A DNA stretch of 64,000 nt from Fibrobacteria bacterium (GCA_025360005.1 JANYDA010000001.1:87144-151143), one strand, 5' to 3'; shown: positions 1,925-32,749, numbered from the stretch's first letter. Notes: a model not told the origin generated them from the sequence alone. Made by a program: numbers and translations.

Positions 1925-2173
1925 ATGACGCGTGACGACTTGCTCCCGGTCCTTCTGAAAATAGCCCGGGACGTTACCGACGATGAGCAATTGACGTTCG
2001 CTGCCGAAACCCCGTTTGCGAAGATCGAGGCATGGGATTCCATGAATCATGTCCACATCCTGGTTGGCATGGAGGATACTTTCCGGATCCGCTTCAATGA
2101 TGCGGTGTCGTTGCAAAGCGTAGTGATCGTCCAGGACCTATTGGATATTATCGCCGGCCTGAAAGGGCTTTAG
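1925..2173 (+). CDS. Acyl/D-alanyl carrier protein (DltC-like, phosphopantetheine attachment site)
   Basis: 82-aa protein with carrier-protein Ser motif WDSMNHVHILVGMEDTF. First gene of the dlt-like operon. Confidence 0.7.
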   Translation: MTRDDLLPVLLKIARDVTDDEQLTFAAETPFAKIEAWDSMNHVHILVGMEDTFRIRFNDAVSLQSVVIVQDLLDIIAGLKGL

Positions 2174-2194
2174 TAACTGGCGGCCACCACCAGA

Positions 2195-3622
2195 TTGGCA
2201 AATGAGAAATCCTTGCAATTCCTTTCACTAGAATTCCTGGCTGCCCTAAGCGTGGTTTTCCTCGCTTACTGGGCGATACCCGCCAAGACCTGGCAAAACA
2301 TCCTGCTTCTTTCAGCCTCATTGGGGTTGGTTTTTTACCTCAGCCGGATGGCATTGGCCGTCCTGATTGTTTCCACGATATTCGAGTGGCTCTTAGCGCG
2401 GAAAATGGGCGGCCGCACGCCCGTCCAAGGCCGATCCGCCTTGCTTTGGTCGTCCATTTCCATAAACCTGGCCCAGCTCGCTTTTTTCAAATACTCCGGA
2501 TTCTTTTTGCCCCAAGCGATTGCGCTCGTTTCGCGTTTCGGCCTCAATACGGCGAGCTTGCATATCCTAATGCCCGTCGGCCTCTCCTTCTGGACCTTGC
2601 AGAAAATGACTCTCACGCTGGATGTCTATTTCCGGCGGGCCGAAGCGGAAAAAAACCTTTTGATGTGCCTGCTCTTCACCAGCTTCTTCCCCACCCTGTT
2701 GTCCGGGCCCATCGAGCGTTCCCGGGATTTGCTTCCCCAATTCCGGCGCGGACGCGTGTGGGACCCGCAGCGGTTCTCGGAAGGAGTCTGGTTGTTCGCG
2801 GTGGGCGCATTCCTTAAGGCGGTCATAGCCGATAACGTGGCCTTAAGCGCGGATGCCCTGCTCGCGCCGCGCAACTCGGGTTGGCCGCTTCTGCTGGGGA
2901 TCTGGGCGTACGCGTTGCAAATCTACGGGGACTTCGCCGGCTACTCCTACATGGCCCGCGGCATCGCCAAACTTTTCGGCCTGGAAATCACCCAGAACTT
3001 CCTGGCTCCTTATCTCGCGCGGAACCTGTCCGACTTCTGGAAACATTGGCATATCTCCTTATCGGGATGGTTGAACGAATATATTTTCGTGCCGGCTTCC
3101 ATGAAATTCCGGCGTTGGAAAACCGGCGGCATCATTTTCGCCGTTTGGTTGACGTTCATAGCCAGCGGACTCTGGCACGGAACGGGACTCACCTTCTTCA
3201 TCTACGGGTGCGTACATGCCATCGGCCTGACCTTTTTCATCCTAAGTAAAAATCTTCGCAAACGGGCTAAGGAAAGATTCGGCGGGGCCTACCTGGACGG
3301 ACTCGCCACGTTCATCACCTTCCAATATGTTTGCCTGGGATATGTTTTCTTCCGCGCCCCGGACCTCACCACTGCCCTGGCGCAGATAAAATCCATTTTC
3401 CATTCCGTGGGAAATCCGGCCGGCTCCGGGTTCGACTGGAAGATCCTGCTCGTTTCGGCGGTGACGGTTTACTGGCTGCAATCCCAGATTCGCGAAAAGA
3501 AGGACGTTTTCTGGGTGTTCAAACGTCCTATCTGGTATCGGATGGCCATCTACCTGGTGCTGGGGTTTTTCCTGCTCCGCTTTTATGCTCCCTCCGATGG
3601 ATTCATTTACTTCCAGTTTTAA
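2195..3622 (+). CDS. MBOAT-family membrane-bound O-acyltransferase (DltB/AlgI-like)
   Basis: 475 aa, polytopic and hydrophobic, with conserved-His regions (FWKHWHISLSGWL, WHGTGLTF) typical of MBOAT. Follows the carrier-protein gene. Confidence 0.85.
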   Translation: MANEKSLQFLSLEFLAALSVVFLAYWAIPAKTWQNILLLSASLGLVFYLSRMALAVLIVSTIFEWLLARKMGGRTPVQGRSALLWSSISINLAQLAFFKYSGFFLPQAIALVSRFGLNTASLHILMPVGLSFWTLQKMTLTLDVYFRRAEAEKNLLMCLLFTSFFPTLLSGPIERSRDLLPQFRRGRVWDPQRFSEGVWLFAVGAFLKAVIADNVALSADALLAPRNSGWPLLLGIWAYALQIYGDFAGYSYMARGIAKLFGLEITQNFLAPYLARNLSDFWKHWHISLSGWLNEYIFVPASMKFRRWKTGGIIFAVWLTFIASGLWHGTGLTFFIYGCVHAIGLTFFILSKNLRKRAKERFGGAYLDGLATFITFQYVCLGYVFFRAPDLTTALAQIKSIFHSVGNPAGSGFDWKILLVSAVTVYWLQSQIREKKDVFWVFKRPIWYRMAIYLVLGFFLLRFYAPSDGFIYFQF

Positions 3623-3626
3623 AGGA

Positions 3627-4700
3627 ATGCCCAAGGTGAACCCGCTAAAACCGCTCCTGCGAGATTTCCCCGCCGCCACCCGGGCGTTCCTGCTGGCTGT
3701 TTCCATCACCCTGGTTTTAACATTCGTGATGCGCGTTACGTTCCATAGCAATAAGCCCGGGGTTTTCCTGCTGGGCGATTCCGGGATCGGAAATTACCGC
3801 CTGGATCCGGGACAAAGGCTCCAGGATTTCCTCGAACGCTCCAACCCTAAGACCGAGGTGGATAACTGGGCGGAGCCCGGGGCCACTCCCATGGATTTTT
3901 TCCTGCAGTACAGCCGGGGATGCGCCCTGGCCGGCAAACCCCGCACCGCCATCATCGCCTTTTCACCCGACAAGTTCCTGGAAGCCCCGGATTTCCACCG
4001 CTTCGATGACGGCGGCGTGAACCTGAGATGGCTCCCGTGGAATTCTACGGGGTTGAAACTATTCTCCCGGCTCACCGGGAAGGAGCGGAACGCCGCCATC
4101 GTACAGCAGGCGAGCATGCCGCTCTATGCCGCGGCGGACTTGGGCAAATCCCTGTGGATCCGCTATGTGCAATGGCCGTGGGAACGTTCGCAAATGCTGA
4201 CTCCCTCCGGAGAGCGCAAGAAGCGGATCGAGATGAAATCCATCGAATCCGGAAAAGCCAAGGATACTTTGAAGCTCATCGGCGACGATGCCTTCGCCGA
4301 GCTTCCCTTGGCAAAGGATTGCGAGTTCTTGCTCCGCTCTTTGCGGGAACAAGGCGTAGAGACAAGGGTTATCCTGCTCCCGATCGGAAATCCGAAACTG
4401 ATCCGCCTGACCTATTCCAACCATGCCCAAGCCAATCAGGACTCCGTTAAGGCCAGGATGCGCCATTGGCTGGATGTCCAGGGACAATCCTATGTGGATT
4501 TCAACGCTCCCGGGGAAATGGATCATTTTCCGGACTCCACCTGGGATGACATGAGCCATTTGAAATCCCCCTCCGCTTTCGCCTACATGTCCCGGAGAAT
4601 CCAGGAGTTCCTGAGATCGGCTGCGGTACGCGATGTCCAGATGCCTTATTCTTTGGTCAACTCCAGCGGCGAGGATGGAAACGCGGACGCGAGGAATTGA
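3627..4700 (+). CDS. DltD-like / SGNH-hydrolase-fold membrane-anchored protein
   Basis: The track ORF starts at 3585; the likelier start is ATG 3627 with an AAAGGA RBS immediately after the MBOAT stop. N-terminal TM helix, then a GDS-type motif FLLGDSGIGNY. Position between MBOAT and adenylase matches DltD. Confidence 0.55.
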   Translation: MPKVNPLKPLLRDFPAATRAFLLAVSITLVLTFVMRVTFHSNKPGVFLLGDSGIGNYRLDPGQRLQDFLERSNPKTEVDNWAEPGATPMDFFLQYSRGCALAGKPRTAIIAFSPDKFLEAPDFHRFDDGGVNLRWLPWNSTGLKLFSRLTGKERNAAIVQQASMPLYAAADLGKSLWIRYVQWPWERSQMLTPSGERKKRIEMKSIESGKAKDTLKLIGDDAFAELPLAKDCEFLLRSLREQGVETRVILLPIGNPKLIRLTYSNHAQANQDSVKARMRHWLDVQGQSYVDFNAPGEMDHFPDSTWDDMSHLKSPSAFAYMSRRIQEFLRSAAVRDVQMPYSLVNSSGEDGNADARN

Positions 4701-4701
4701 C

Positions 4702-6294
4702 GTGAGGCCCGATTTTTCCCGGCCCAACCTGGCCGAGCTTTTCTATCACTCCGCTTCCGTGTCTCCTGAAAGCCAAGCCCTGGGTTGCGAGGACCTTTCC
4801 CTGACCTACGCCCAACTCCTGGATCTGGTGGAGTCCGTGCGTGTCCCGCTCGGCGCGGACGGTTCTGAGTTCGTAGGTATCCTCGCCTATCGCAGCCCGC
4901 TGGCTTATGCCGCCGTGCAGGCCATCTTGGCGGAAGGCAAAGCCTATGTTCCCCTCAATCCCCTGTTTCCCGCCTCCCGGAACGCATACATTCTCCGCAA
5001 AGCGCGAATCACCACCCTGATCGTGGGGGAAGAATGCGCGGATTCCCTGTCGGCCCTGCTGCCGGAGTTGCGGAAGGCGGCCCATCCCATCCGGTTGGTT
5101 TTCCCGGAATGGATGCCATCCTTGCGGAGCCTGGTTGATGCGGCCGGCGAGGCGGTTCTTCCGATCGAAATGAAAATGGGATCGGCCCTTTCGCCTACGC
5201 CCGTAAAAGCGATTCCGGAAGACGGGAGCGCTTATGTCCTGTTCACCTCCGGCAGTACGGGCGTGCCCAAAGGAGTGCGGGTGCGGCATGACAATGTCCT
5301 CTCCTATCTGCGTTCCTTCCTGGCCGCCTACCCCATCTACCCGCATGACCGGATTTCCCAGACCTTCGATCTCACTTTCGATGTCAGCGTGCATGACCAG
5401 TTCATCACCTGGGCCGTGGGCGCCGTCCTCATCGTGTTTCCCGTCAAATCGCTTTTCTCGCCGCTGGCCTACGCCGCCGCCCAGAAGCTGACGATATGGT
5501 TCTCGGTGCCGGCGCGCGCCGCTTTCCTGGAAAGCGCGCGTCTGGTGGTACCGGGGGCGTTACCGGACGTACGCATAAGCCTGTTCGCGGGAGAAAAGCT
5601 CACCTGGAAGACATGCGAAATCTGGAAACGGATAGCGCCCCAAAGCCGAATTCTCAACCTGTACGGGCCCACGGAAGCCACTGTCGCTTTCACCCATTTT
5701 GAAATCCCGGAGGATTTTCCGGAAACGCGCGCCTATCAAGGCGGAATCCCCATCGGCAGAGCATGGCCGGGTCAAAGCGTCCAGGTACGCGCGGCCGACG
5801 GTTCCCTTTGCCGGGCCGGGCAGGCGGGATCGCTTTGGCTGGCCGGAGATCAGCTCGCACCCGGTTACCTGGACGAACCGGAAAAAACCGCGGAGAGATT
5901 CATATCGCGCGACGGAACCCTCTGGTATCGCACCGGCGATCTGGTCATCGAGGAGGCGGATGGGGCGCTGCAATACCTGGGCCGCGAGGATTTCCAGGTG
6001 AAGGTGATGGGCTACCGGATCGAGTTGGGCGAGATCGAACATGCCCTGATGAATTGCTCGGGCGCGGCCTTTGCGCTCGCCGACGTCGCGGCCATCCGGG
6101 GAGGGATGGAAGAGATATTTTGCGTGCTTCCCGGGCATCTGGCGGAGAGCAAAAAGGAAATCACCCTTTCCCTGAAGCGCTTGCTGCCCGCTTATATGGT
6201 GCCCCGGCATATTTTTTTCATCGATGACGTCCCCTTGAACGCCAACGGCAAAATGGATCGCGGAGCCCTTAAAGCGCAACTCACGCGGTCATAA
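4702..6294 (+). CDS. AMP-dependent adenylation enzyme (DltA-like carrier-protein ligase)
   Basis: Adenylation core motifs LFTSGSTGVPKGV, NLYGPTEATV, YRTGDL, GREDFQVKVMGYRIELGEIE and NANGKMDR. GTG 4702 with a GAGGAA RBS follows the upstream stop. Alternative ATG at 4675 or the track start 4633. Confidence 0.85.
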   Translation: MRPDFSRPNLAELFYHSASVSPESQALGCEDLSLTYAQLLDLVESVRVPLGADGSEFVGILAYRSPLAYAAVQAILAEGKAYVPLNPLFPASRNAYILRKARITTLIVGEECADSLSALLPELRKAAHPIRLVFPEWMPSLRSLVDAAGEAVLPIEMKMGSALSPTPVKAIPEDGSAYVLFTSGSTGVPKGVRVRHDNVLSYLRSFLAAYPIYPHDRISQTFDLTFDVSVHDQFITWAVGAVLIVFPVKSLFSPLAYAAAQKLTIWFSVPARAAFLESARLVVPGALPDVRISLFAGEKLTWKTCEIWKRIAPQSRILNLYGPTEATVAFTHFEIPEDFPETRAYQGGIPIGRAWPGQSVQVRAADGSLCRAGQAGSLWLAGDQLAPGYLDEPEKTAERFISRDGTLWYRTGDLVIEEADGALQYLGREDFQVKVMGYRIELGEIEHALMNCSGAAFALADVAAIRGGMEEIFCVLPGHLAESKKEITLSLKRLLPAYMVPRHIFFIDDVPLNANGKMDRGALKAQLTRS

Positions 6295-6321
6295 CCGGGT
6301 TTGCATTGCCTGGGTTATCGG

Positions 6322-8922
6322 CTACGCCTTCGCTTTTGCCGCCGCTGCCGCCGCCGCCAGCTTCGGCTCCGGAAGCAGTTTCAATGCCAGCCAGGGCGTA
6401 AGACACATCGACGTCCCCAGCAAGGCCAGCAGGCCCAACACCGCGAACTTACCGATGCTGGCTATTCCCATGTGGGTGGTGAATAGCATCCCCGCATATC
6501 CGGCCGTGGTGGTCAAGGTGGAGACGGCCACCAGCACGCCGATGCCCCCATACAATTCCCCGATGCGATGGCGTCCCAGGCGCAAGTATCCCAGCAGCAT
6601 ATAGCTCCCCACGTCCACGGCATACCCTTGCAGGGTTGTGATGACGATCAGATTGAAAGGCCCGATTTTCAATCCCGACAAACCCATCAATCCCAGTATC
6701 CAAACCAGACCCACCGCCATCTGGATCAAGCAGGCGATCAGCAGGCGCCAATCCCGGAAGATCAGCGCCAGCAACAGGATCAACACCCCGACCATCCAGA
6801 TGGAAACGCGCAAGCTGTCCGATTTCACGATGTGGATGATGTCGCTGAAGACGAAGCTGGTGCTGAAGCTCGCCAACCTTTCGCCGCCGGCGGAGAGATG
6901 GCCGTAATGTTCCTGGAAAACCGAAGCATCCAGGGCGTTGGAGGAATTGTACCGTCCGTAGATGAAACCCAGGCGGCCGTAGCTGCCATCGCGCTCCCGG
7001 AGCAGGTTGAGGGCCCACGGCGGGATATCGGCGGGATGGAAGGGCGACGTCATGGCCAAGTCGCGCAAGTTGGCGATCATGGCGGAATCGTCCCCTTTGG
7101 CCCTATCGAACACGCGTGCGGAGATCAATTCCCCGATGTGGTTTATCTCCAGCATCCGTTCCTGTTGCGCCTGCACGGGCGGTACGAAAGTGGCCAAGGT
7201 AAGGAAGCTGCGCAAATACGGATCGCGGTTCACGGTGAGACGCCGGAGCAAGGTATCCTGGAGCGCGGCCATGGAAGCGGAATCCCTGGCCATGACCACT
7301 ACCGGCTGGCTGCTGGTGCGATTGCTGCCCAACGCCACGCTCACGGGCAGCCCGCCATCCTTCTCGCCGCGCGTGTCGCGCAATTTGGAGAAGTCGTATT
7401 CAAAAGCCAGGCGCGGTATGAAAAAGCCAAGCACCAGGGCACCCGCGCAAACGGTGAGGGCCGTTCCCTTTACCAGCTTGGGCCAATCCGGCCGCCATGA
7501 GAAGGGCCAACGGATCGGATCAGCCGCCCTGATGCGCAGCCATGCGAATCCCGGCACCGAGCCGAGGCTTTCCATAGCGAACAGGTATGCGGGCAAAAGC
7601 AGGTAGACGCCGGCTAGGCTCACCACTATACCTGCCGAGGCCTGGACGCCGAACTCATAGAAACCCACGAATTTGGAAGCCAGCAAGGTCAGCAAACCGG
7701 CCACGGTAGTGGATGCGCCCACCAGCAAGGAGAAGAAAAGCTCATCGAGTGTCCTGGCAAGCGCCGTCGCCCAATCCTCGCCCTCCCGGACCAGTCGCAG
7801 CGCGTACCCCAGCACGTAGATGGAAAAATCGATCCCCATGCCGAACAGGATGGAGACCACGAAAGCCGTATACAAATTCAAATGGCCATAGATACCCATG
7901 GTCAGGGCCAAAGTCACCAAGCAAGCGATGACCGCCTGCAAGAAAACCAGGAACACGGAACCGAAATTTCGGAAAAACGCCGCGATGATGAGGATGTTCA
8001 GTCCCACGGATATCAAGGTTGCCAATAAGCCGTTGCTCGCCAGCGAGTCCACCTCCGCCAATTCCTTGTAAGGGCCCTCCACGCCGATATTCAGCCGCGC
8101 GCCGTATTCGGAACGCAAGGGGCCCAGCAAGGCATGGCTGCGCGCCACTACCGTCTTCACGTAATCGAAATCGGAGCTGGGCTTGGACAGCGATGCCTGC
8201 ACCAATCCCACCAACTTGCCCTCGCGGGTCCTTCCCATCAGGCGGGAACGGAGCGAATCGGGGATGCCGCTCTTGGAGTCGTATTGATCCGCGCCGGTCT
8301 TTCCCTTTTTCAAAAACCGGGTGAAGGACTCGGCGGCCTCGTCCGGAAGTCCCAACTGCTGGGGCAAGTCCGCGTCGAACCACTCCCGCTTGGGTTTGGC
8401 GGCCGCCGAATCCTCGTCCAGAAGATCGACGGTCAATGGCCCTTGCTTGCCCAGGTCCAGCCTCAAGTCCTGGATCTCCCGCGAGATTTTCCGCAACTGA
8501 TCCTGGGGCAGGTAAAGCAATGCGTGTTTGCGGAAAAAGGAATTGTCGCGCTGCGATTGGGCATAGACTACGTCCGGCCACTTCCGCAGCGAATCCGCAA
8601 GCCTATCCTGGATGCGGGCCAGTTCCGCGGGATCCTGGATTGAGATGGCGATGGTATAGAGGTCGGAACTGCCCAAGCGGGTCTTGGCCTCGCGCATGGC
8701 GCGGATGGTTTCCGTGTTCCGCGGCAGCAGGGCGTCGAGATTGGCGTCTATGCGCAGATGGGTGGCATAGAATCCGCAGAGCGCGGAGGCGCCGAGACTG
8801 ATTGCCACGATGAGGAAACGATGGCGTTGGGAACGGCGGATATGCGACAGCAGCAACCGTTTCCAAAACCCGGCTTGGCGGGAGGATGTACCGACAAGGT
8901 TATTTTTCTTCGTTGATGTCAC
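6322..8922 (-). CDS. MMPL / RND-superfamily exporter (two 6-TM bundles with large periplasmic loops)
   Basis: 866 aa; duplicated MMPL-type transmembrane architecture (…GIDFSIYVLGY… and …GYAVDVGSYML…); C-terminal Ala/Lys tail. Its start overlaps the upstream lipoprotein gene by 23 nt. Confidence 0.8.
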   Translation of the reverse strand: MTSTKKNNLVGTSSRQAGFWKRLLLSHIRRSQRHRFLIVAISLGASALCGFYATHLRIDANLDALLPRNTETIRAMREAKTRLGSSDLYTIAISIQDPAELARIQDRLADSLRKWPDVVYAQSQRDNSFFRKHALLYLPQDQLRKISREIQDLRLDLGKQGPLTVDLLDEDSAAAKPKREWFDADLPQQLGLPDEAAESFTRFLKKGKTGADQYDSKSGIPDSLRSRLMGRTREGKLVGLVQASLSKPSSDFDYVKTVVARSHALLGPLRSEYGARLNIGVEGPYKELAEVDSLASNGLLATLISVGLNILIIAAFFRNFGSVFLVFLQAVIACLVTLALTMGIYGHLNLYTAFVVSILFGMGIDFSIYVLGYALRLVREGEDWATALARTLDELFFSLLVGASTTVAGLLTLLASKFVGFYEFGVQASAGIVVSLAGVYLLLPAYLFAMESLGSVPGFAWLRIRAADPIRWPFSWRPDWPKLVKGTALTVCAGALVLGFFIPRLAFEYDFSKLRDTRGEKDGGLPVSVALGSNRTSSQPVVVMARDSASMAALQDTLLRRLTVNRDPYLRSFLTLATFVPPVQAQQERMLEINHIGELISARVFDRAKGDDSAMIANLRDLAMTSPFHPADIPPWALNLLRERDGSYGRLGFIYGRYNSSNALDASVFQEHYGHLSAGGERLASFSTSFVFSDIIHIVKSDSLRVSIWMVGVLILLLALIFRDWRLLIACLIQMAVGLVWILGLMGLSGLKIGPFNLIVITTLQGYAVDVGSYMLLGYLRLGRHRIGELYGGIGVLVAVSTLTTTAGYAGMLFTTHMGIASIGKFAVLGLLALLGTSMCLTPWLALKLLPEPKLAAAAAAAKAKA

Positions 8923-9709
8923 CGGAAGCCTCTATCTTTTGACGGATCCGCAATCCCGCGCCTTGGCAAAACCCGTCGCCCGCGAGCAAAGTAACCCCGG
9001 AATCGCCGGCGGTCGAACCGCTGGCCTCCAGGCAATTTTTCAAATCGACGGTTTTGAACCAATCGTCGACGGTCAATTGCAACAGCAGCTTATTCAGGGC
9101 CGCCGCGGTGATCCTGATCCCGGTGGGACCGTCGAAATCCAATCCGTCCCGCAGATTGAGGCGGACGGAAAACGGCCTTGCCCGGCCGTCCGCGCTATCC
9201 GTCCCCCCCCTGATTTCCATGTTCGGGGTGTTGGTATCCACGGCGGGCGCGGACTCGTTATCGGAAAGCTCCAGGCCGACCCGGGTATAAACGCCTTCCG
9301 GCAAGCGCAGATGTTCCAAAGGCGGATTGGACGCGCCGGTCATCAGATCGACGACGAAAGGCCCCGGAAGCGAAATCCCATCGCTGTCGCACGTGTATCC
9401 GGGAGCCGATTCGCAAGTCAATCCCACCGGAAGACTGAGATCGATTTTGCGCACCGCAATGGTGAGGGAAGAGATCTTGATGGCGGAACCCGCGGAGTCG
9501 AACACCTCGAACGTACCATCCGGGTTACGTATGACCGCGGCGGCGCTTTTCCGCAGCACCGAATCGGTAAGCGAATTGGCCCTGAACACCAACGCGACTT
9601 CGGCCAGGGGCGGGTTGCCGGCGCCCGTTCCGCCGGACACTTTTTCCGGCTGGCAGCGCAGGAGCACCAACCCCAGCGCCAGAACCGCCGCCCTCATTCC
9701 CGGGCTCAT
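8900..9709 (-). CDS. Lipoprotein paralogue 1 (GGTGAGNPPL family; Fibrobacter-type partner of TIGR02147)
   Basis: Likely start MSPGMRAAVLALGLVLLRC with a GAAGGA RBS. Mature N-terminus CQPEKVSGGTGAGNPPL. Shares VDDWF and LAGDGFC blocks with the 10623-11453 paralogue. Confidence 0.6.
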   Translation of the reverse strand: MSPGMRAAVLALGLVLLRCQPEKVSGGTGAGNPPLAEVALVFRANSLTDSVLRKSAAAVIRNPDGTFEVFDSAGSAIKISSLTIAVRKIDLSLPVGLTCESAPGYTCDSDGISLPGPFVVDLMTGASNPPLEHLRLPEGVYTRVGLELSDNESAPAVDTNTPNMEIRGGTDSADGRARPFSVRLNLRDGLDFDGPTGIRITAAALNKLLLQLTVDDWFKTVDLKNCLEASGSTAGDSGVTLLAGDGFCQGAGLRIRQKIEASGDINEEK

Positions 9710-10545
9710 TGCGGATCCTTCTTTACCCGGGTCAAAGGGAACAATTGGAGATTGACTTGGTAGACTGCTTCGGCGTGCTGCTGGGTGCCGGCAAAATCGA
9801 GGATGTCCCTCCAAATCACCTCCATGCGCGACTTCAATTCCAGGAATGCGCTTTGGGTGAGGCCGATGGTCACCGAACGCACATCGCGTTCGCCAGGACC
9901 GAAATGCTTAAGCGCATCCTGCCCCAACTGCATGGCCGCCAGGTGGTAATTCCGGAGCGCGAGTTGGCTGGCCTCCGACTCCGTGGCTATGACGGGGTCC
10001 GCAAGACGCCAAGCCATGGTTTCCGGATCCAACCGGACGAGCCCCAGCTTTTGCAGCACATCCCTCGCGCCGTCGACTTGGGCGGCGGTCAGGCGGGGGA
10101 AGATGCGCTCCGCAATCCATCCGCTGGTTCCGTCGAAGCCAGGGTGAGTCATCAATTCCCGGACCACGGGATTGTACCAATTGCTGAAGAACTCATATTG
10201 CGATTTGTCCAGGGTCTTTACCGCGGCATACCGTTTGTTCTTCAGGATGTTTTGGTAGAAAAGGTTTTTTTCATCCCAGCTCTTGGCTTGGCCGTAGCCA
10301 ACCAGGTTCTGCAGGAATTCCGTTTCCGTACGATTGAGTTTGAATGCCTTTGCCACGGCAACGGCATACTTGGAACTTAGGTTCCGCTTTCCCTGGATGA
10401 CCATTTGCAGGAAGTTGGGAGAGGAAAACCCGGAGCGTTTGGCGAAAGTCCGGAATGAAAGCTTTGGGGAATCGGCCTTCAAGGCCGCGAAAGCATCCCG
10501 AAGATAATCGCGGTATTCGAGATAGGTATGGATGTCCGGTTTCAT
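9706..10545 (-). CDS. TIGR02147-family protein (Fibrobacter succinogenes paralogous family), copy 1; N-terminal HTH-like
   Basis: MKPDIHTYLEYRDYLRDAF…SFRTFAKRSGFSSPNFLQMVIQGKRNLS…QYEFFSNWY. The track ORF begins at 10587; the start was chosen by alignment to the other two copies. Confidence 0.75.
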   Translation of the reverse strand: MKPDIHTYLEYRDYLRDAFAALKADSPKLSFRTFAKRSGFSSPNFLQMVIQGKRNLSSKYAVAVAKAFKLNRTETEFLQNLVGYGQAKSWDEKNLFYQNILKNKRYAAVKTLDKSQYEFFSNWYNPVVRELMTHPGFDGTSGWIAERIFPRLTAAQVDGARDVLQKLGLVRLDPETMAWRLADPVIATESEASQLALRNYHLAAMQLGQDALKHFGPGERDVRSVTIGLTQSAFLELKSRMEVIWRDILDFAGTQQHAEAVYQVNLQLFPLTRVKKDPQ

Positions 10546-10622
10546 GGATGGGAAGCGTTCCCAACCAAGCGGGCCGGGGAATCCCAATTATACAAAATCG
10601 CCGACGGTAAAAACGTCCGGAT

Positions 10623-11453
10623 TCAGGGTTGTTCCACCTGATCCTCATAGTTGATTCCGCCGGATGCCTCGATGTTCCGCCTCACCCTTATGCCGGTCCC
10701 GGAACAGAAACCGTCCCCTTGCAATCGGACAATGCCGGCGCTATCGGAACCGGCCGGGGAGGCGGCCATGCAAGCCTGCATATCCGTCCCCTGGAACCAG
10801 TCGTCCACGTTCAAACCCAAAAGGATGTTGTTCAGAGTATCCGATTTGATCCTTACTCCCACGGGATCTCCGAAATCCAAGCCCTCGGTAAGGTTAATCC
10901 GGATCACGAATCGTTGGCCTGCGGACCCCAGCGCGCCCATCCTTCCCCACAGGACGATATTCTGGCTCGTCGAATCCCAATCGGTCAAGGAGTCCTGTTT
11001 GTTCGCAATCAGTTTAAACCCGATCTTCCGGTAGAGTCCCGCCGGGATCTTGAAAACATTCAAAGCCGGATGGGATATCCCACGCAGCAAATCCAGGTCG
11101 AACGGACCTTCCAGGGTGGTTTCACCGTCCTTGCAGGGAAGCCCGGAAAAGATGGGGCAATCGAGACTGTCCGGCAATGCGAAATCGATGCCCTCCACGC
11201 GCGACACGATGGAATCAAGCGATAACACGGCTCCGGCGGAATCCCGTATCACGAATCCGCTGTCCAAGGCGATGAGGCCGGAGGCGGTGGATTTGGGCAG
11301 AATCCTGGGGCCTGAGGATTTCGCCTTGAGAGCCAAGGTCACCTCGCCGAGCGGCGGGTTCCCTGCGCCCGCGCCTCCGGCTACGCGTTCAGGAATGCAT
11401 TGGAAAAAGGAGATGCAGGTAAGCATGAGGCAAAGACGGAGTACCGGAATCAT
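10623..11453 (-). CDS. Lipoprotein paralogue 2 (GGAGAGNPPL family)
   Basis: Signal peptide MIPVLRLCLMLTCISFFQC. Mature N-terminus CIPERVAGGAGAGNPPL. Paralogous to 8900-9709. Starts 1 nt after the stop of TIGR02147 copy 2. Confidence 0.6.
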   Translation of the reverse strand: MIPVLRLCLMLTCISFFQCIPERVAGGAGAGNPPLGEVTLALKAKSSGPRILPKSTASGLIALDSGFVIRDSAGAVLSLDSIVSRVEGIDFALPDSLDCPIFSGLPCKDGETTLEGPFDLDLLRGISHPALNVFKIPAGLYRKIGFKLIANKQDSLTDWDSTSQNIVLWGRMGALGSAGQRFVIRINLTEGLDFGDPVGVRIKSDTLNNILLGLNVDDWFQGTDMQACMAASPAGSDSAGIVRLQGDGFCSGTGIRVRRNIEASGGINYEDQVEQP

Positions 11454-11454
11454 A

Positions 11455-12306
11455 TCAAACCTTTCCCTCGCGGGAGGAAGGGCCCCGGGTCAGCGGAAAC
11501 AATTGCAGATTCACCTGGTATACCGCATCGGTCTCGCGCTGGGTTCCCGCGATTTCCAAAACTTCTTTCCACACGTTTTCGATTCTGGATTTCAATTCTC
11601 CATAGGCTTCATGGGATAGGCCGATGGTTACCGAGCGGACATCCCTTTCCGCGGGCCCGAATACTTTCAGGCTATCATGCGCCAACTGGATCGCGGCCAT
11701 ATGGTAGTTGCGAATCCCCAGGTGGGTGGTCTCCGAATCCGTGCTTACCACCGTGTCCACCAAGCGCCAGCGACCGGAATCCGGGTCCAAACGGACCAAG
11801 TCCAGGTTCGTCAGCAGGGTTTTGGCGGAGTCCACCTGGGCGATGGTGATGCGCGGGAAAATACGCTCCGCGATCCATCCGCTGCTCCCGTCGAACTCCT
11901 TGTGCACCAGCAGCTCGCGGACGACGGGGATGTACCAATGGGTGAAAAATTCATACTGGGATTTGTCGAGGTATTTCGCCGAGGCATAGCGCGCGTTGCG
12001 CAATATCTTCTGGTAGTAAAGATTTTTTTCGTCGAGACTCTTGGCTTGGTCGTAGCCCACCAGGTACTGGAAGAAATCCGTCTCCTGTTTGTTCAGCTTG
12101 AAGGCCTTGGCAGCGACCACGGCATTCGTGGAACTCAAATTGCGCTTTCCCAAGATGACCATTTGCAGGAAGTTCGGAGACGTGAATCCCGCTTTTTTTG
12201 CGAAGGTCCGGTAAGACATGCGGGGTGAGGCCTTTTGGATAGCCGTGAAGGCGTCCTTAAGGTAGGCCCGATACTGGATGTATTTGAAGATATCCGGTTT
12301 GTTCAT
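11455..12306 (-). CDS. TIGR02147-family protein, copy 2
   Basis: MNKPDIFKYIQYRAYLKDAF…SYRTFAKKAGFTSPNFLQMVILGKRNLS…QYEFFTHWY. The track ORF extends to 12381; the internal Met was chosen by alignment. Confidence 0.75.
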   Translation of the reverse strand: MNKPDIFKYIQYRAYLKDAFTAIQKASPRMSYRTFAKKAGFTSPNFLQMVILGKRNLSSTNAVVAAKAFKLNKQETDFFQYLVGYDQAKSLDEKNLYYQKILRNARYASAKYLDKSQYEFFTHWYIPVVRELLVHKEFDGSSGWIAERIFPRITIAQVDSAKTLLTNLDLVRLDPDSGRWRLVDTVVSTDSETTHLGIRNYHMAAIQLAHDSLKVFGPAERDVRSVTIGLSHEAYGELKSRIENVWKEVLEIAGTQRETDAVYQVNLQLFPLTRGPSSREGKV

Positions 12307-12388
12307 AAAGATGGCTTCCCACTCCGCGGTCGGTTGCCGGGAAGCGGCGATGCCATGGGCACCGCCGCTGTTGAACGGCAAAGAAAGG

Positions 12389-12862
12389 TTATTTCACCTC
12401 CGTGGTGTCGCCACCGGCATGGCCGGACGCTTCCTGTCCTTCGACAGCGTCCTTAACGCCGCCGACCTCTCCATCCTTCTTATCCTCGGTTTTGGTCGAA
12501 TCCGATTTTTCTTCGTCGCCGCCTTTCCCGGCTTCGGTGCCTTCCGCACCTGAATGGTGATCCTTTTCATCGCAACCCGCGACTTCGGCGGAATCCTTTA
12601 CTTCAGTAGAATCCTTTACTTCAGTAGAATCCTTTTCATCGGCCACTTTGGCGCTATCGCCGTCCTCGTGACCTTTCCCCATGGCTTTTTCATGGCTGCA
12701 GCCGGTGCTACCGGTATCGACCACGCCGCCCTTGGTCTGGGTGGACAGGGCTCCGTTGGAATTGCTTGCAGGGTCGGAAATGCCCAGACATCCGGCCATA
12801 AAAGCCAGCGACAGGCATCCTGCCCCCAAGGTGAGAGTATTCCGCATAATGACTCGATTCAT
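12389..12862 (-). CDS. Small acidic secreted lipoprotein with KDSTEV tandem repeats
   Basis: Signal peptide plus lipobox-like LAFMAGC. Low-complexity Asp/Glu/Lys/Gly-rich body with His and Cys. An 18-bp tandem DNA repeat at 12591-12644 encodes KDSTEV KDSTEV KDSAEV. Confidence 0.5.
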   Translation of the reverse strand: MNRVIMRNTLTLGAGCLSLAFMAGCLGISDPASNSNGALSTQTKGGVVDTGSTGCSHEKAMGKGHEDGDSAKVADEKDSTEVKDSTEVKDSAEVAGCDEKDHHSGAEGTEAGKGGDEEKSDSTKTEDKKDGEVGGVKDAVEGQEASGHAGGDTTEVK

Positions 12863-13126
12863 ATTCGTTCTCCAATGTTAGCGTTGACCTGGGGCGACTC
12901 TTCGCTCCGGAACTTAAGATAACATCGATAATAATTCATGATCAAATATTATATATTTTAATATGATTCATCATTATTTACATAAGACATTGATTTTAAA
13001 TATGTTATAGGATAATAAATTTTTAGATTATTTTTATTATGAACCCATTATGATTCATTTAAGTCCGTTTTTGGGAAAATTCGTTTCGCAGTTACTAGGT
13101 TTGGAACCAGTGTCAAGGAGGATATT
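12863..13126. promoter_or_regulatory. AT-rich divergent intergenic/promoter island with two copies of the palindromic motif ATGAnTCAT
   Basis: About 230 bp of >75% A+T inside a GC-rich context. ATGATTCAT occurs at 12963-12971 and 13050-13058. Flanked by divergently transcribed genes (12862 minus, 13127 plus). Confidence 0.5.
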
Positions 13127-16295: not shown

Positions 16296-16308
16296 GGCGG
16301 ATGGGGAG

Positions 16309-30400: not shown

Positions 30401-30530
30401 GGATGCGCCATCATTGGTAGGTTTTTTGAATCCTCAGGCAAGCCTTGCGCCCTCCGTGGCAACATGTCCTCCCGGGGCCGAAACCATTCTCGTCGGTTTT
30501 GAGGTATAATGCATAGGATCGAAGAACGCT

Positions 30531-31388
30531 ATGAAAGCATCCAAGCAAGAACCAAACGCCAGGCCCGATATTTTCCGTTATGCGGACTATCGCGCCTTCC
30601 TCAAGGACAGCTATGAATCGCGTAAGGCCGCCAACCCGGCGTTCTCGCACCGTTACCTGGCCGCCAAGATAGGTTTCGATGCCGGGCAGTTCTCCAAGAT
30701 CCTGAGCGGAAAGCGCAACCTGACGCATGCCATGATCCTGAAGTTCTCGGATCTGTTCAAGCTGGGAAAGAAGGAAAAGGAATACTTCGAGCTTCTGGTG
30801 CTGGCCAATCACGCGAAAACACCCACCGACCGCGCGGAACTGCTCGCGAAGCTTCCGCCGTTGCGCCCCAAGGCCGCCAAAGCCGTGGCCTCCGGCCTGG
30901 ATGAATATTACCGGCATTGGTACCATAGCGCTTTGCGGGAGCTGCTTGGCTTCTATCCTTTCCGCGGCGACTGGAACGCCTTGGGGCGGATGCTCGTCCC
31001 TGCCCTTTCGGCCGAGCAAGCGGAAAAAGGCGTGATGCTATTGGTAGAGTTGGGATTCCTGCAGAAGGATGCGCAAGGCGGATTCCGCATTTCCGATCCG
31101 CATATCACCACCGGGTACAAAAGCCCTTCCGCGGCCGTGCACCATTTCATCCGGACCACGCTGGACCTGGCAAAAGGCTCCTTGGACGGCTTTCCCAAGG
31201 ATATCCGCAATCTGTCCACCCTGACCTTCAGCACCTCGGAGAACCACTTCCTGCAGATCCAGGAAAAGATCCGGCTGTTCCGCAAAGAGCTGGCGGATGA
31301 AGTGGACAAGGTGGAAAAGCCCGAACGCGTCTACCAACTCAATATGCAAATCTTCCCGCTATCGGAAACCTGGGGATCCGGCAAATGA
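30531..31388 (+). CDS. TIGR02147-family protein, copy 3
   Basis: …RPDIFRYADYRAFLKDSY…SHRYLAAKIGFDAGQFSKILSGKRNLT…YYRHWYH… aligns with copies 1 and 2. A TATAAT element lies 21 bp upstream. Overlaps the downstream lipoprotein gene by 4 nt. Confidence 0.75.
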   Translation: MKASKQEPNARPDIFRYADYRAFLKDSYESRKAANPAFSHRYLAAKIGFDAGQFSKILSGKRNLTHAMILKFSDLFKLGKKEKEYFELLVLANHAKTPTDRAELLAKLPPLRPKAAKAVASGLDEYYRHWYHSALRELLGFYPFRGDWNALGRMLVPALSAEQAEKGVMLLVELGFLQKDAQGGFRISDPHITTGYKSPSAAVHHFIRTTLDLAKGSLDGFPKDIRNLSTLTFSTSENHFLQIQEKIRLFRKELADEVDKVEKPERVYQLNMQIFPLSETWGSGK

Positions 31389-32749
31389 AAATCCCGTCGA
31401 CGCTATCCGTGCTGGCGGCCAGCTGCGGCGTGATGGCGGGGCTTTGCCTCACCGCATGCGGACCCAACCGCGTCGCCGGAGGCACCAGTTCGGAGGCGGA
31501 GGCGCTTCTGCAAGGAACGGTGACCAAGCCGGACGGTTCGGCCGCGGCGGGAGCCCGCGTGCGCATCCGCCCCATCGGCTACCTCTCCCGCTCCGGAACG
31601 GATACCTCCGCGCTCGCCGATTTGGTCGCCGATTCCCTGGGCAAGGTGAAATGGACCACCCGCGATACGGGACTCTTCAACCTGGAAGCGGAACTGGGGG
31701 ATACCTTGGGAACGCTGATAAGGGACATTTCCCCCGGCCGCGAATCCGGGCATCTCACCGCATCCCTGGACACCAACGGATCCATCCGCGTCAACCTGGC
31801 CACGCCTCAAGCCGGCTCCGGCTATTCCCTGCGCGTCTACGGAATGGAACGGTTCCAGGCAGCCGATGCCCAGGGTATCTTCCATGTTACCCTACCCGCC
31901 GGCGGCTACTCCCTCCTCATAGAGCATTCTCCGCCCTCCGGATCCCCGCTCTTGGTCCGGGACGTGCAGGTGGCCAGTGGAAAAACCACCCTGCTGGATT
32001 CGCTGCGCTTCCCGGCTTTGGATTCGGTCCTGCTGGGATACTGGGCCTTCGAGGAAGGCGGCGGCGATTCCGCCCGGGACGGCTCCGGGAACGGGCACGC
32101 GGGAATGGTGCGCGGCGCCCAATGGGTCGCGGGCAGGAAGGGCCTGGGACTCCGCTTTACGCAGGGACAGGGATACGTGGACATGGGAATTCCCCAACCG
32201 GACACTTTCGCCTTCGGCGCGGCCAGGGACTATTCCTTTTCGGTATGGGCCAAGACCGACAACCCCGTGCCCAACCGGGGGCTGGGGCGACGCATCATTT
32301 CCAAGCAAGGGGGCGCCAACGGATTCTCGTATTTCCTGCGCATCTTCCCGGATGGACGGCCCGGCTTCGCTTCCAACACGCGCAAGGACACGGTAAAAGC
32401 TCCCGCCGGATCCGTTACGGCCGCGCGGGATTTGATCGCGCCCGTGAACGTGGGCGACGGCGCCTGGCACCATTGGGCCGGGGTCCGCAAGCGGAACCGC
32501 CTGACCTTGTATATAGACGGCCAGGCTGTCGCCTCCGCCAGCGACGACAGCCTGAGATCGGATTATAGTTTTATCGATTACAATGATCACAGTGCCCTGC
32601 TATACCCGGATCCCGGGCAGGACAATCACCTTTTGATCGGCTGCGCCAAAACCGGCGTGGACGGTTTCGACGGCGTGATCGATGAAGCCCGCGTATACGG
32701 CCGCGCGCTCACGCCCCAGGAAATCCTGCTGCTCGCCGATCCTTTCTAA
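31385..32749 (+). CDS. Lipoprotein with C-terminal LamG/concanavalin-A-like lectin domain
   Basis: Lipobox LTAC. Mature N-terminus CGPNRVAGGTSSEAEAL. C-terminal LamG-type blocks (DGAWHHWAGVRKRNRLTLYIDGQAV…DGVIDEARVYGRALTPQEI). Confidence 0.75.
   Translation: MKIPSTLSVLAASCGVMAGLCLTACGPNRVAGGTSSEAEALLQGTVTKPDGSAAAGARVRIRPIGYLSRSGTDTSALADLVADSLGKVKWTTRDTGLFNLEAELGDTLGTLIRDISPGRESGHLTASLDTNGSIRVNLATPQAGSGYSLRVYGMERFQAADAQGIFHVTLPAGGYSLLIEHSPPSGSPLLVRDVQVASGKTTLLDSLRFPALDSVLLGYWAFEEGGGDSARDGSGNGHAGMVRGAQWVAGRKGLGLRFTQGQGYVDMGIPQPDTFAFGAARDYSFSVWAKTDNPVPNRGLGRRIISKQGGANGFSYFLRIFPDGRPGFASNTRKDTVKAPAGSVTAARDLIAPVNVGDGAWHHWAGVRKRNRLTLYIDGQAVASASDDSLRSDYSFIDYNDHSALLYPDPGQDNHLLIGCAKTGVDGFDGVIDEARVYGRALTPQEILLLADPF

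Follow-up and report, generated by a model that had tools for sequence, protein, structure and literature searches.

The conserved unit in the DNA analysed here, a stretch of 64,000 nucleotides from a Fibrobacteria bacterium (hereafter the window), is a pair of genes, the first encoding a protein of the TIGR02147/DUF4423 family (T47) and the second a lipoprotein bearing a Gly-rich motif that ends in Asn. Two such pairs lie side by side ahead of a gene for an MMPL/RND-superfamily transporter. We consider it moderately likely that they represent two self-contained cassettes, each made of a regulator and its lipoprotein, in front of a housekeeping lipid exporter, and not a single six-gene system.

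Gene array and junctions

Six minus-strand ORFs were confirmed at 6322-12862, all with homologues elsewhere, and the co-directional array running from an AT-rich island to the MMPL gene, described in the first-pass annotation, was thus borne out in both ORFs and junctions. None of the six proteins matched the PADLOC models of anti-phage defence (E<=0.01). The genes of the array, the operon facing it and a third cassette of the window are:

1925..6294, plus strand: convergent dlt-like operon (ACP, DltB-like MBOAT, 371-aa protein, DltA-like adenylation enzyme)
6322..8922, minus strand: MMPL/RND-superfamily transporter, 866 aa, HpnN/BstA-like, GTG start at 8922
8900..9709, minus strand: LPb, second four-Cys lipoprotein, 269 aa, with SGGTGAGNPPL, ATG start at 9709
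9706..10545, minus strand: T47b, second TIGR02147/DUF4423 protein, 279 aa, ATG start at 10545
10623..11453, minus strand: LPa, four-Cys beta-rich lipoprotein, 276 aa, with AGGAGAGNPPL after the lipobox Cys
11455..12306, minus strand: T47a, TIGR02147/DUF4423 protein, 283 aa, predicted cytoplasmic, ATG start at 12306
12389..12862, minus strand: Asp/Glu/His-rich repeat lipoprotein (acidic lipoprotein), 157 aa, ORF with signal peptide ...LAFMAGC
30531..32749, plus strand: third cassette, T47c and a 454-aa lipoprotein
30531-31388, plus strand: T47c, 28-29% identity to T47a/b by tblastn
31385-32749, plus strand: 454-aa lipoprotein with CarboxypepD_reg and Laminin_G_3, ATGA overlap with T47c

Read from the sequence, the intergenic gaps of the array measure 82, 1 and 77 nt, and the two other junctions overlap, by 4 and 23 nt. 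LPa starts 1 nt past the T47a stop, the T47b stop and the LPb start share an ATGA, and the LPb stop lies 23 nt inside MMPL. The MMPL segment FWKRLLLSHIRRSQRHRFLIVA is kept in orthologues and lies upstream of all alternative starts; the start was therefore placed, on N-terminal homology, at GTG 8922, and the 23-nt overlap is real. Given this overlap, MMPL is likely to share a transcript with T47b-LPb in this genome.

T47a and T47b, for which a profile search had been proposed, were confirmed as TIGR02147 members with 256.1 and 238.7 bits against a cutoff of 50, over profile positions 2-271 of 272, and scored 100 and 98 bits against 30 for PF14394. The T47 fold models as an XRE-type HTH (five-helix Cro/C1-type) plus a winged helix; the model also shows a helical linker, an ArsR/HxlR-like character of the winged helix and two long C-terminal helices, with about 120 residues outside the two DNA-binding modules and no membrane segment. 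From the fold and footprinting, we infer DNA binding and autoregulation. The earlier proposal of HTH-like regulators for the array stands as to the predicted fold and the tight coupling to lipoprotein genes, but not as to MMPL, whose link with them is not conserved.

Both LPa and LPb carry (A/S)GGxGAGNPPL after the lipobox cysteine. Four Cys and one Trp are invariant in their family, which is small, and a hydrophobic stretch followed by an invariant Cys was found in 22/22 members, as well as in nearly all T47 partners, although position -1 of the lipobox is an atypical Q, R or H in this subfamily. Lipidation of T47 partners is predicted from that stretch and the lipobox Cys. The predicted fold of LPa and LPb is weakly MbnP-like, in a model of moderate confidence only (pLDDT 67.8). 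The suggested relation of the lipoproteins to TIGR02145 did not hold, no match with TIGR02145/PF09603, or with any other family, being found in LPa, LPb or the acidic lipoprotein (Pfam and NCBIfam, E<=0.01).

As to the duplicated modules reported earlier, two T47/lipoprotein modules do lie side by side, but identity is 66% between the two T47 proteins and only 39% between LPa and LPb. LPa is closer to the lipoproteins of loci L001-L003 (56-57% identity) and LPb to those of L004, L007 and L008 (47-51%), loci with an acidic lipoprotein upstream. A recent tandem duplication was rejected, since each module has closer relatives in other genomes; on sequence identity, the two are old paralogues placed next to each other.

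In the third cassette the lipoprotein carries a degenerate motif, C-GPNRVAGGTSSEAE, and a TATAAT lies upstream of T47c at 30505. The window thus holds three T47 genes in 64 kb. A TolC-MFP-RND operon was also observed nearby, with a CusA/CzcA-like score of 511 bits, below cutoff; the multidrug type scores equally well.

T47-lipoprotein pairs across phyla

The TIGR02147 family is found in Fibrobacterota, Bdellovibrionota and Myxococcota, and the pairing was surveyed in 80 loci of these phyla (Fibrobacteria and Chitinivibrionia for the first, Oligoflexia-type lineages included in the second). The T47 gene is almost always followed by that of a protein with a lipobox Cys, typically at -4, -8 or +1 nt, and every LPa homologue inspected has a DUF4423 gene before it, the two overlapping by 4 nt. 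A strict regular expression for the motif matched 54/87 ORFs downstream of T47 and 20/2452 of the remaining ORFs (odds ratio 199, Fisher p 3e-71), and the misses among the former are mostly visible variants of the motif. Loci L016-L018, L021 and L024 offer a natural control: there a four-Cys homologue upstream of T47 is devoid of the motif, whereas the downstream one carries it.

Across T47 partners the motif is Gly/Ser/Thr-rich with an almost invariant terminal Asn(-Pro/Gly), 3-16 residues from the Cys. The third positions of its codons vary freely, indicating selection at the protein level, and the signal peptides of these lipoproteins are not conserved. T47 is conserved while its cargo varies widely: the partners range from 122 to 634 aa in a set of 67 proteins (a 1587-aa partner was left out), with CarboxypepD_reg in 18, Laminin_G_3 in 10, DUF2341 in 6 and, further, LRR, DUF4382 and CCP_MauG domains. 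T47 identity tracks lipoprotein type, the four-Cys type being found with T47 proteins at least 39% identical to T47a wherever the downstream gene was readable.

Promoter island and internal signals

The AT-rich promoter island was confirmed, with a GC content of 0.38 at 12801-13200 against about 0.58 elsewhere. It precedes the acidic lipoprotein gene, which contains an 18-nt tandem repeat (12591-12635) encoding DSTEVK and whose product had no Pfam or NCBIfam match. Homologues of this gene lie directly upstream of T47 in L004, L006, L007 and L008, and the protein is His/Asp/Glu-rich in all orthologues. The signals in and downstream of the island are:

12917..13057, minus strand: promoter island upstream of the acidic lipoprotein gene, by alignment with orthologous loci
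13057..13040, minus strand: inverted repeat TGAATCATAATGGGTTCA, in the island
12969..12964, minus strand: GAATCA box, in the island
12953..12948, minus strand: TATAAT, candidate -10, in the island
12945..12940, minus strand: TTGATC, alternative candidate -35, in the island
12922..12917, minus strand: TTATCT, alternative candidate -10, in the island
12334..12381, minus strand: stem-loop between the acidic gene and T47a, 12-bp core stem at 12343-12369
10587..10592, minus strand: perfect TATAAT, candidate internal promoter, 41 nt upstream of the T47b start

When the island was aligned with seven orthologous loci, the blocks GAAT.A-N7-TTC, TTA and GAATCA were invariant and the rest was diverged AT-rich DNA. 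Orthologous promoters of the T47a type have a GAATCA-N6-GATTC-type inverted repeat in common, and the same boxes stand directly 5' of T47 in L003, L010 and L012, loci without the acidic gene. In the 64-kb window by itself, the palindrome does not exceed what chance predicts. A family-wide 6-mer scan retrieved no universal operator (GAATCC reached a z of 3.5 only); its top word was TATACA (z 5.3), which resembles a -10 element. A divergent outer-membrane protein gene uses the same AT-rich island, and in L013 the gene immediately before T47 is of the Fur family.

The stem-loop after the acidic gene has a perfect GC-rich stem without a U-tract, and its predicted energy of -36.8 kcal/mol (z -3.59; shuffled sequences average -26.1) was equalled in 0/200 shuffles. 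L004, L007 and L008 have analogous GC hairpins in this position, and the structure is possibly an attenuator or a partial terminator. The hairpin in the LPa/T47b spacer was not significant (z -0.52). The TATAAT before T47b is flanked by GAATCC and GGATTC half-sites; the window contains only seven such hexamers, both strands counted, and each of the three T47 units has one of them shortly before it in the proper orientation. The single transcription unit proposed at first thus stands for MMPL and T47b-LPb, likely co-transcribed, but the hairpin and the TATAAT inside the array speak against its extension to all six genes.

In the cassette reading that we favour, each T47 would be a transcription factor dedicated to the cassette that encodes it, acting in T47a-type orthologues at the GAATCA-N6-GATTC-type inverted repeat and the GAATCA box of the promoter island. 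The lipoprotein would be the exported cargo, here a beta-sandwich in the periplasm or at the surface, probably with two disulfides and weakly MbnP-like in fold. The Gly-rich...Asn motif would serve these lipoproteins in common as a tether or sorting signal, recognised by some factor of the envelope. A promoter in the island (P1) would drive the acidic lipoprotein gene and then, past a hairpin perhaps damping read-through, T47a and LPa, while a second promoter (TATAAT at 10592) would drive T47b, LPb and MMPL, the last probably co-transcribed only because the cassette landed directly on its start codon. Both promoters and the role of the motif are what we infer from these signals. Against this reading, the conserved boxes may be those of another regulator, given the Fur-family gene of L013 and the divergent outer-membrane protein gene at the island, and an operator common to the whole family did not emerge from the scan. 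Moreover, the strict co-occurrence of a cytoplasmic regulator with a periplasmic tether motif does not follow from a simple scheme of regulator and cargo, the lipobox is atypical at position -1, and the pairs may be loosely linked to MMPL (3/6 genomes and L011, see below).

Alternative readings and known systems

A role in metal, possibly copper, homeostasis, with an MbnP-like four-Cys lipoprotein, an acidic metal buffer or chaperone and metal-responsive T47a/b, seems to us unlikely but deserves the first place among the alternatives; being about what this subfamily carries as cargo, it is compatible with the cassette reading. The four invariant Cys and the Trp of the lipoprotein, the His/Asp/Glu-rich partner in all orthologues and the Fur-family gene of L013 are consistent with it, as are the T47 of a distant locus (L056), the only one followed by a di-haem CCP_MauG (MbnH-like) lipoprotein, and the CusA/CzcA-like score of the nearby RND operon. 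However, that pump fits the multidrug type as well, no sequence-level relation to MbnP or TIGR04052 was found, the structure prediction is only moderately confident, and the window's genes at 3585-13909 include none for an MbnH-like di-haem cytochrome c peroxidase.

The MMPL protein belongs to PF03176 (42.4 bits against a gathering score of 20.5) and has two large periplasmic loops in a 12 TM-type architecture. It matches HpnN over about 560 and BstA over about 420 residues (E 6e-48 and 1e-40), but stays below the equivalog cutoffs (TIGR03480 HpnN, 163.4 vs 751.85; NF052374, 96 vs 1100; NF045600 BstA, 139 vs 1400). Its orthologues occur throughout Fibrobacterota and, judged by homology, it is a core Fibrobacteria HpnN/BstA-like lipid exporter. 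Hopanoid or sterol genes are not conserved beside it; its conserved neighbour is the acyl-carrier/MBOAT operon, on which the array does converge, as had been noted, and the same convergent arrangement was found in L086, L087 and L088. The operon is called no more than dlt-like because its DltA and DltB scores fall below the equivalog cutoffs (TIGR01734, 237 vs 560; TIGR04091, 172 vs 375); the 371-aa protein in the DltD position had no family match.

HpnN/BstA-type RND exporters work with periplasmic or outer-membrane partners (BstABC is named in NCBIfam NF045600), and one operon could accordingly form one system, in which T47-regulated lipoproteins cooperate with MMPL to export lipids or lipoproteins or to remodel the surface. 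The homology-confirmed 23-nt overlap and the tight co-directional packing favour such a system, as does the search for a canonical terminator on the minus strand, which found none. Of six genomes viewed through MMPL, three (the window, L086 and L087) have a T47-lipoprotein pair within a few kb ahead of it, and in L011 MMPL lies on the strand opposite to the pair, so some loose linkage may exist. However, two genes and about 3.3 kb separate the upstream pair from MMPL in L087, and three genes, one of them on the opposite strand, and about 4.7 kb in L086; both pairs are other paralogues, whose lipoproteins differ in architecture, and a density of three T47 genes in 64 kb makes such proximity partly expected by chance. 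The closest MMPL orthologues, in L089 (84%), L090 (76%) and L088 (70%), have unrelated genes upstream and no pair. Among 13 distinct four-Cys loci at 55% T47 identity or more, only L011 has MMPL within the flanks; elsewhere the four-Cys lipoprotein is followed by unrelated genes, TPR and CapB/CapC-like or an S8 peptidase and a 460-aa protein. With the hairpin and the TATAAT inside the array, we regard the one-system reading as quite improbable. The first-pass annotation had itself named what would speak against it, and all three were found: no conserved synteny of MMPL with the pair, internal signals, and no relation of the lipoproteins to TIGR02145.

Least probable is trans-envelope signalling, in which the lipoprotein would sense a cue and its export, motif cleavage or signal-peptide release would be relayed to T47 (precedents would be anti-sigma cascades, or lipoprotein-signal-peptide pheromones read by RRNPP-type XRE-HTH regulators): overlapping or abutting codons suggest translational coupling, T47 and its lipoprotein seem to have diversified together in the different phyla, the motif, conserved at the protein level, goes with T47 adjacency and not with lipoprotein fold, and the extra T47 residues could bind a ligand, but the cassette has no conserved transmembrane partner, T47 is without a membrane segment, signal peptides are not conserved, and the cargo domains resemble adhesin- or enzyme-type modules rather than sensors.

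The earlier remark that no system of this composition had been described agrees with the literature searched, where no functional study of the TIGR02147 family was found and a single paper mentions DUF4423, in a proteome table. T47a, T47b and T47c (about 129 bits) are clear members, about 280 aa long, of TIGR02147 ('Fsuc_second')/DUF4423, catalogued only as of unknown function; the lipoprotein pairing, the dual HTH/winged-helix fold and the promoter repeat, described nowhere in that literature, are added here. Compared with XRE autoregulators (P22 c2, C.AhdI controller proteins, DdrO, HigA), T47 has in addition the linker, the ArsR/HxlR-like winged helix and the C-terminal helices, and its partner is an exported lipoprotein instead of a restriction enzyme, toxin or protease.

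The tentative resemblance of LPa and LPb to MbnP of the MbnPH 'metallo-mystery pair' (PDB 7L6G) goes with 12% identity; neither matched an MbnP family in NCBIfam (E<=0.01, TIGR04052 included), and a profile of the 22 four-Cys members retrieved nothing from PDB sequences at E<=10. To our knowledge, the N-terminal lipobox and the GGxGxGNPPL motif are absent from MbnP. The motif has a parallel in the lipoprotein export signal (LES) of Bacteroidota, reportedly a short acidic run directly after Cys+1. Both are short motifs just after the lipidated Cys, common to many otherwise unrelated lipoproteins; unlike the LES, the motif described here is Gly/Ser/Thr-rich, ends in Asn and is tied to an adjacent regulator gene. 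The LES is nonetheless the best analogy for what the Gly-rich...Asn motif might do.

The six-gene array and its origin

The six minus-strand genes that the first-pass annotation had read as one transcription unit linked to an MMPL exporter were all present as ORFs, with junctions near to those described (by sequence reading, three are gaps, of 82, 1 and 77 nt, and two are overlaps, one of 4 nt at ATGA and one of 23 nt). The same holds for the two claimed TIGR02147/DUF4423 proteins (T47a and T47b, hereafter T47 proteins), both unambiguous members of the family, for the MMPL/RND gene ending the array, for the AT-rich island upstream (GC 0.38 against about 0.58) and for the convergence on a dlt-like operon.

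12862..12389, minus: acidic lipoprotein, Asp/Glu/His-rich (ORF)
12306..11455, minus: T47a (TIGR02147, 256 bits against a cutoff of 50)
11453..10623, minus: LPa, four-Cys lipoprotein (ORF)
10545..9706, minus: T47b (TIGR02147, 239 bits against a cutoff of 50)
9709..8900, minus: LPb, four-Cys lipoprotein (ORF)
8922..6322, minus: MMPL, RND-superfamily transporter (PF03176, 42 bits)
1925-6294, plus: dlt-like operon (82-aa ACP, DltB-like MBOAT, 371-aa protein in the DltD position, DltA-like adenylation enzyme)

Every named match of the dlt-like operon lay under the Dlt equivalog cutoffs. No array protein matched PADLOC models, and Rfam, searched over 6000-13400 at E ≤ 1, returned nothing except two chance matches. 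The acidic gene carries a perfect 18-nt tandem repeat (12591-12635, minus strand, 2.5 copies) that encodes DSTEVK repeats.

For MMPL, which among named proteins comes nearest to HpnN and BstA but scores far under their equivalog cutoffs, homology places the start at the GTG at 8922. Indeed, the segment FWKxLLxSHIxFSxRHRFLIVA, kept in orthologues, lies upstream of all other possible starts, so that the public gene call (828 aa, P0102), which begins 38 codons late, is too short and the 23-nt overlap with LPb is real; the start-codon annotation is here corrected by these 38 residues. At the other end, a (GCC)7 repeat (6338-6358) gives the protein an Ala-rich C-terminal tail.

The two T47-lipoprotein modules had been regarded as a tandem duplication; a recent one is excluded by the identities to other loci. 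T47a and T47b share 66% identity, and each is 71-75% identical to the T47 proteins of three loci in other genomes (L004, L007 and L008). The nearest relatives of LPa are the lipoproteins of L001-L003 (56-57%), whose downstream genes are of the TPR/Cap type, and those of LPb are the lipoproteins of L004, L007 and L008 (47-51%), with an acidic lipoprotein gene upstream. The window thus juxtaposes two old subfamilies, probably brought side by side by a rearrangement.

The TIGR02147-lipoprotein pair and its post-lipobox motif

No signal peptide or membrane segment was found in T47a, and its confident predicted model (pLDDT 89.2) has a helical linker and two long C-terminal helices; on this model, T47 therefore looks cytoplasmic, with two modules of DNA-binding type. 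The family is large, with 14,459 matches at E ≤ 1e-10 in a profile search of 1.84 billion representatives (50%-identity clusters). It occurs in Fibrobacterota, Bdellovibrionota and Myxococcota, and F. succinogenes and Bdellovibrio are culturable organisms that carry it. From the TIGRFAMs entry for TIGR02147, we take the cellulolytic model Fibrobacter succinogenes to hold about 24 paralogues. A literature search for DUF4423/TIGR02147 retrieved one paper only, in which Bd3700 is an entry of a Bdellovibrio proteome table and is given no function. Some representatives of about 596 aa (P0269 and P0278) contain two matched stretches and result either from a fusion of tandem T47 proteins or from gene calls that were merged.

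LPa and LPb gave no match in Pfam or NCBIfam, and the kinship with TIGR02145 named in the first-pass annotation was not borne out. Their family is very small: a word-indexed search of 5.8 billion proteins found 22, all from Fibrobacteres/Fibrobacteria metagenome bins, and remoter four-Cys members were found beside T47 genes of 39-46% identity. The alignment shows as invariant a Cys after the hydrophobic leader, followed a few residues on by GG-x-G-x-GNPPL, as well as cysteines 99, 107, 228 and 250 and a DxW motif. PDB sequences compared with the T47 and four-Cys profiles gave nothing meaningful.

In every contig examined, the LPa homologue is preceded by a DUF4423 gene with a 4-nt overlap, and the later genes differ, being a CarboxypepD_reg/TPR protein with CapB- and CapC-like genes in L001-L003 and an S8 peptidase with a 460-aa protein in L004 and L005. 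A scan with a 20-sequence T47 alignment, taking one genome per species, gave 80 loci labelled Fibrobacteria, Chitinivibrionia, Bdellovibrionota (including Oligoflexia-type) or Myxococcota, apart from some bins whose labels were different or implausible. In nearly every locus, the gene downstream of T47 has its start at -4, -8 or +1 nt and encodes a protein whose leader ends in Cys, with a Gly/Ser/Thr-rich stretch 3-16 residues on that closes with a near-invariant Asn (for example AGGxGxGNP, GTGTGNP, GTAVGNPG, GGSGSETTNG and STEVENE). A deliberately strict regular expression for this motif matched 54 of the 87 ORFs downstream of T47; of the remaining ORFs of 100 aa or more in these loci, it matched 20 out of 2452 (odds ratio 199, p 3e-71). 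Of the 33 downstream ORFs missed, most carry a variant of the motif that can be recognised by eye, and the 20 matching controls include several more lipoproteins of this type.

The partners themselves are diverse, ranging from 122 to 634 aa among the 67 proteins scanned, with one of 1587 aa outside this set; their domains include CarboxypepD_reg (18), Laminin_G_3 (10), DUF2341 (6) and SdrD_B (6), as well as LRR, DUF4382 and CCP_MauG. No NCBIfam family spans the motif in ten assorted lipoproteins that carry it, taken from Myxococcota and Bdellovibrionota. In five loci (L016, L017, L018, L021 and L024), a four-Cys homologue without the motif lies upstream of T47 and a copy with the motif downstream, the two being homologous (hhalign probability 99.3%, E 3e-20); therefore, the motif tracks the post-T47 position and not the fold. 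Selection on the motif is, from the codons compared, at the peptide level. A DNA or RNA element was also considered and is excluded, since the third codon positions of GGxGxGNP vary freely in 20 genes.

The window holds a third T47 gene, T47c, whose partner has a degenerate post-Cys motif (GGTSSEAE, no Asn).

30531-31388, plus: T47c; ATGA overlap with the lipoprotein gene; TATAAT at 30505, 20 nt upstream of the start
30531-32749, plus: whole T47c cassette, with a 454-aa partner lipoprotein (CarboxypepD_reg and Laminin_G_3)

As judged from these loci, the conserved unit is the T47-lipoprotein pair and not the six-gene array.

Promoters and candidate operators

In the closest relatives (L004, L006, L007 and L008), a homologous Asp/Glu/His-rich lipoprotein gene precedes T47 with a GC-rich hairpin in between. 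The orthologues of this lipoprotein vary greatly in length (136-188 aa), which suggests expansion and contraction of repeats in its gene. The hairpin of the window has a perfect 12-bp stem in a structure of -36.8 kcal/mol (z -3.6; 0 of 200 shuffles as stable) and no U-tract. When the AT-rich region before the first gene of the unit (the acidic gene if present, otherwise T47) was aligned for eight loci, the following invariant blocks were found within otherwise diverged DNA.

13057..13040, minus: inverted repeat GAAT(C/T)A-N7-TTC (best form TGAATC-N6-GATTCA)
AT-rich island: TTA block (CTTAT in most loci)
12969..12964, minus: GAATCA box
Downstream of the GAATCA box: sigma-70-like hexamers

Since the same boxes stand directly before T47 in loci without the acidic gene, a single promoter probably serves the acidic gene, T47a and LPa. 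The inverted repeat is a reasonable candidate for a T47 operator. In the window alone TGAATC-N6-GATTCA does not exceed chance (4 matches, with 2.98 expected), so that its significance rests solely on conservation across loci; GTGAATCA is under-represented in the window. Across the 150 nt before 85 T47 genes, an unbiased 6-mer scan revealed no operator common to the family; its top words were TATACA/ATACAC (z about 5.3), which resemble -10 elements, and GAATCC reached z 3.5. In gut Fibrobacter orthologues (L071, L077, L080, L081, L083 and L059), a perfect palindrome CGTTGTA-N5/6-TACAACG, different from the window repeat, lies about 60-75 nt upstream of T47, just past the stop of the upstream gene, with GAATCC and TTGTATTTTTAG after it. 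This palindrome may be a terminator or else an operator particular to the subfamily.

In the spacer between LPa and T47b, a perfect TATAAT precedes the T47b start by 41 nt, and three of the seven TATAAT on both strands of the 64-kb window (10592, 12953 and 30505) lie just upstream of T47 units on the correct strand; T47b is thus very probably served by its own promoter. The single transcription unit originally proposed holds only in part: the genes are tightly packed and no canonical minus-strand terminator was found between them, but the hairpin after the acidic gene and the TATAAT before T47b speak against it.

From the same AT-rich island diverges the gene of a putative 260-aa outer-membrane beta-barrel protein (13127-13909, plus; weak match to PF13557, Phenol_MetA_deg), whose position is kept in L007 (2861-3673) and L009 (about 5002-5523), so that the conserved boxes could regulate in both directions. 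An efflux operon (TolC-like, MFP and RND permease genes) is found at 15036-20399 on the plus strand, with permease scores of 560 bits for the multidrug and 511 bits for the CusA/CzcA heavy-metal families, both under cutoff; L009 has the same TolC/MFP genes near a T47 cassette.

Readings of the locus

On balance, we favour self-contained T47-lipoprotein cassettes with a shared motif as the somewhat probable account. Each dual-HTH T47 would control transcription of its own unit, the lipoprotein would be the exported cargo, and the Gly-rich…Asn motif would serve as a common post-lipobox tether or sorting signal. One promoter, P1, would transcribe the acidic gene, the hairpin, T47a and LPa, and a second, P2, T47b and LPb, together with MMPL by accident of insertion. 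This simple model leaves without explanation the strict tie of a cytoplasmic regulator to a periplasmic tether motif. More tentatively, the pair may be an ancient obligate two-component unit, in which the motif is an unrecognised lipoprotein signal (for sorting, surface export or regulated release) functionally wired to the dual-HTH T47; this would be a new envelope-to-gene feedback or lipoprotein-deployment system, beyond a regulator beside its target.

A role of the window's four-Cys cargo in metal homeostasis, compatible with the cassette model, is rather unlikely, even if the weak MbnP-like fold predicted for the four-Cys lipoprotein, the His/Asp-rich partner lipoprotein, the Fur neighbour in L013 and the CCP_MauG partner in L056 are in its favour. 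In L013 the Fur-family regulator gene (5364-5813) is directly upstream of T47, and in L056 (Sandaracinaceae; 4491-7994) the gene after T47 encodes a di-haem CCP_MauG (MbnH-like) lipoprotein, with a motif-bearing lipoprotein upstream, an exceptional arrangement that hints at a metal or redox theme.

An integrated MMPL system, as first proposed, appears improbable. MMPL has orthologues across the whole of Fibrobacterota, with identity falling to 38% in Fibrobacter, and the closest without a cassette (L089, 84%; L090, 76%; L088, 70%) have unrelated upstream neighbours, the nearest being on the opposite strand in L089 and L090. A T47-lipoprotein pair does lie upstream of MMPL in L086 (about 4.7 kb, three genes between) and L087 (about 3.3 kb, two between), but there the paralogues are not those of the window and their lipoproteins differ in architecture, and with three T47 cassettes in 64 kb some proximity to MMPL is expected. 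Among 13 distinct relative loci (four-Cys family, T47 identity at least 55%), MMPL was in range only in L011, on the opposite strand to the pair and with a PMT_2 glycosyltransferase gene between. The occurrence of MMPL orthologues without a cassette and of four-Cys loci without MMPL makes the link, on present comparisons, specific to the window genome. The convergence of MMPL with the same dlt-like operon in L086, L087 and L088, where the upstream genes differ, is conserved across Fibrobacteria genomes and suggests that these two act together; an acylation-export pair for a lipid or polymer would be unusual in a Gram-negative phylum. The first-pass annotation was thus right about the genes, its MMPL-centred interpretation fails the refutation tests it had set itself, and chance in local gene order accounts for most of the six-gene arrangement. 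That T47 and the lipoprotein form a trans-envelope signalling pair is the least probable reading, and a very doubtful one.

The comparison leaves a very large, wholly uncharacterised family of dual-HTH proteins with a simple rule: the next gene, overlapping or abutting, almost always encodes a motif-tagged lipoprotein. This rule of pairing seems to be undescribed, as do the motif and the promoter repeat, and all three are open to testing in culturable organisms. They offer a handle on how these bacteria deploy dozens of different lipoproteins at the surface or in the periplasm (adhesin-like, lectin-like and MbnP-like), and on a possible new post-lipobox signal. For the motif, the nearest precedent is the lipoprotein export signal of Bacteroidota, which it resembles in kind and not in sequence.
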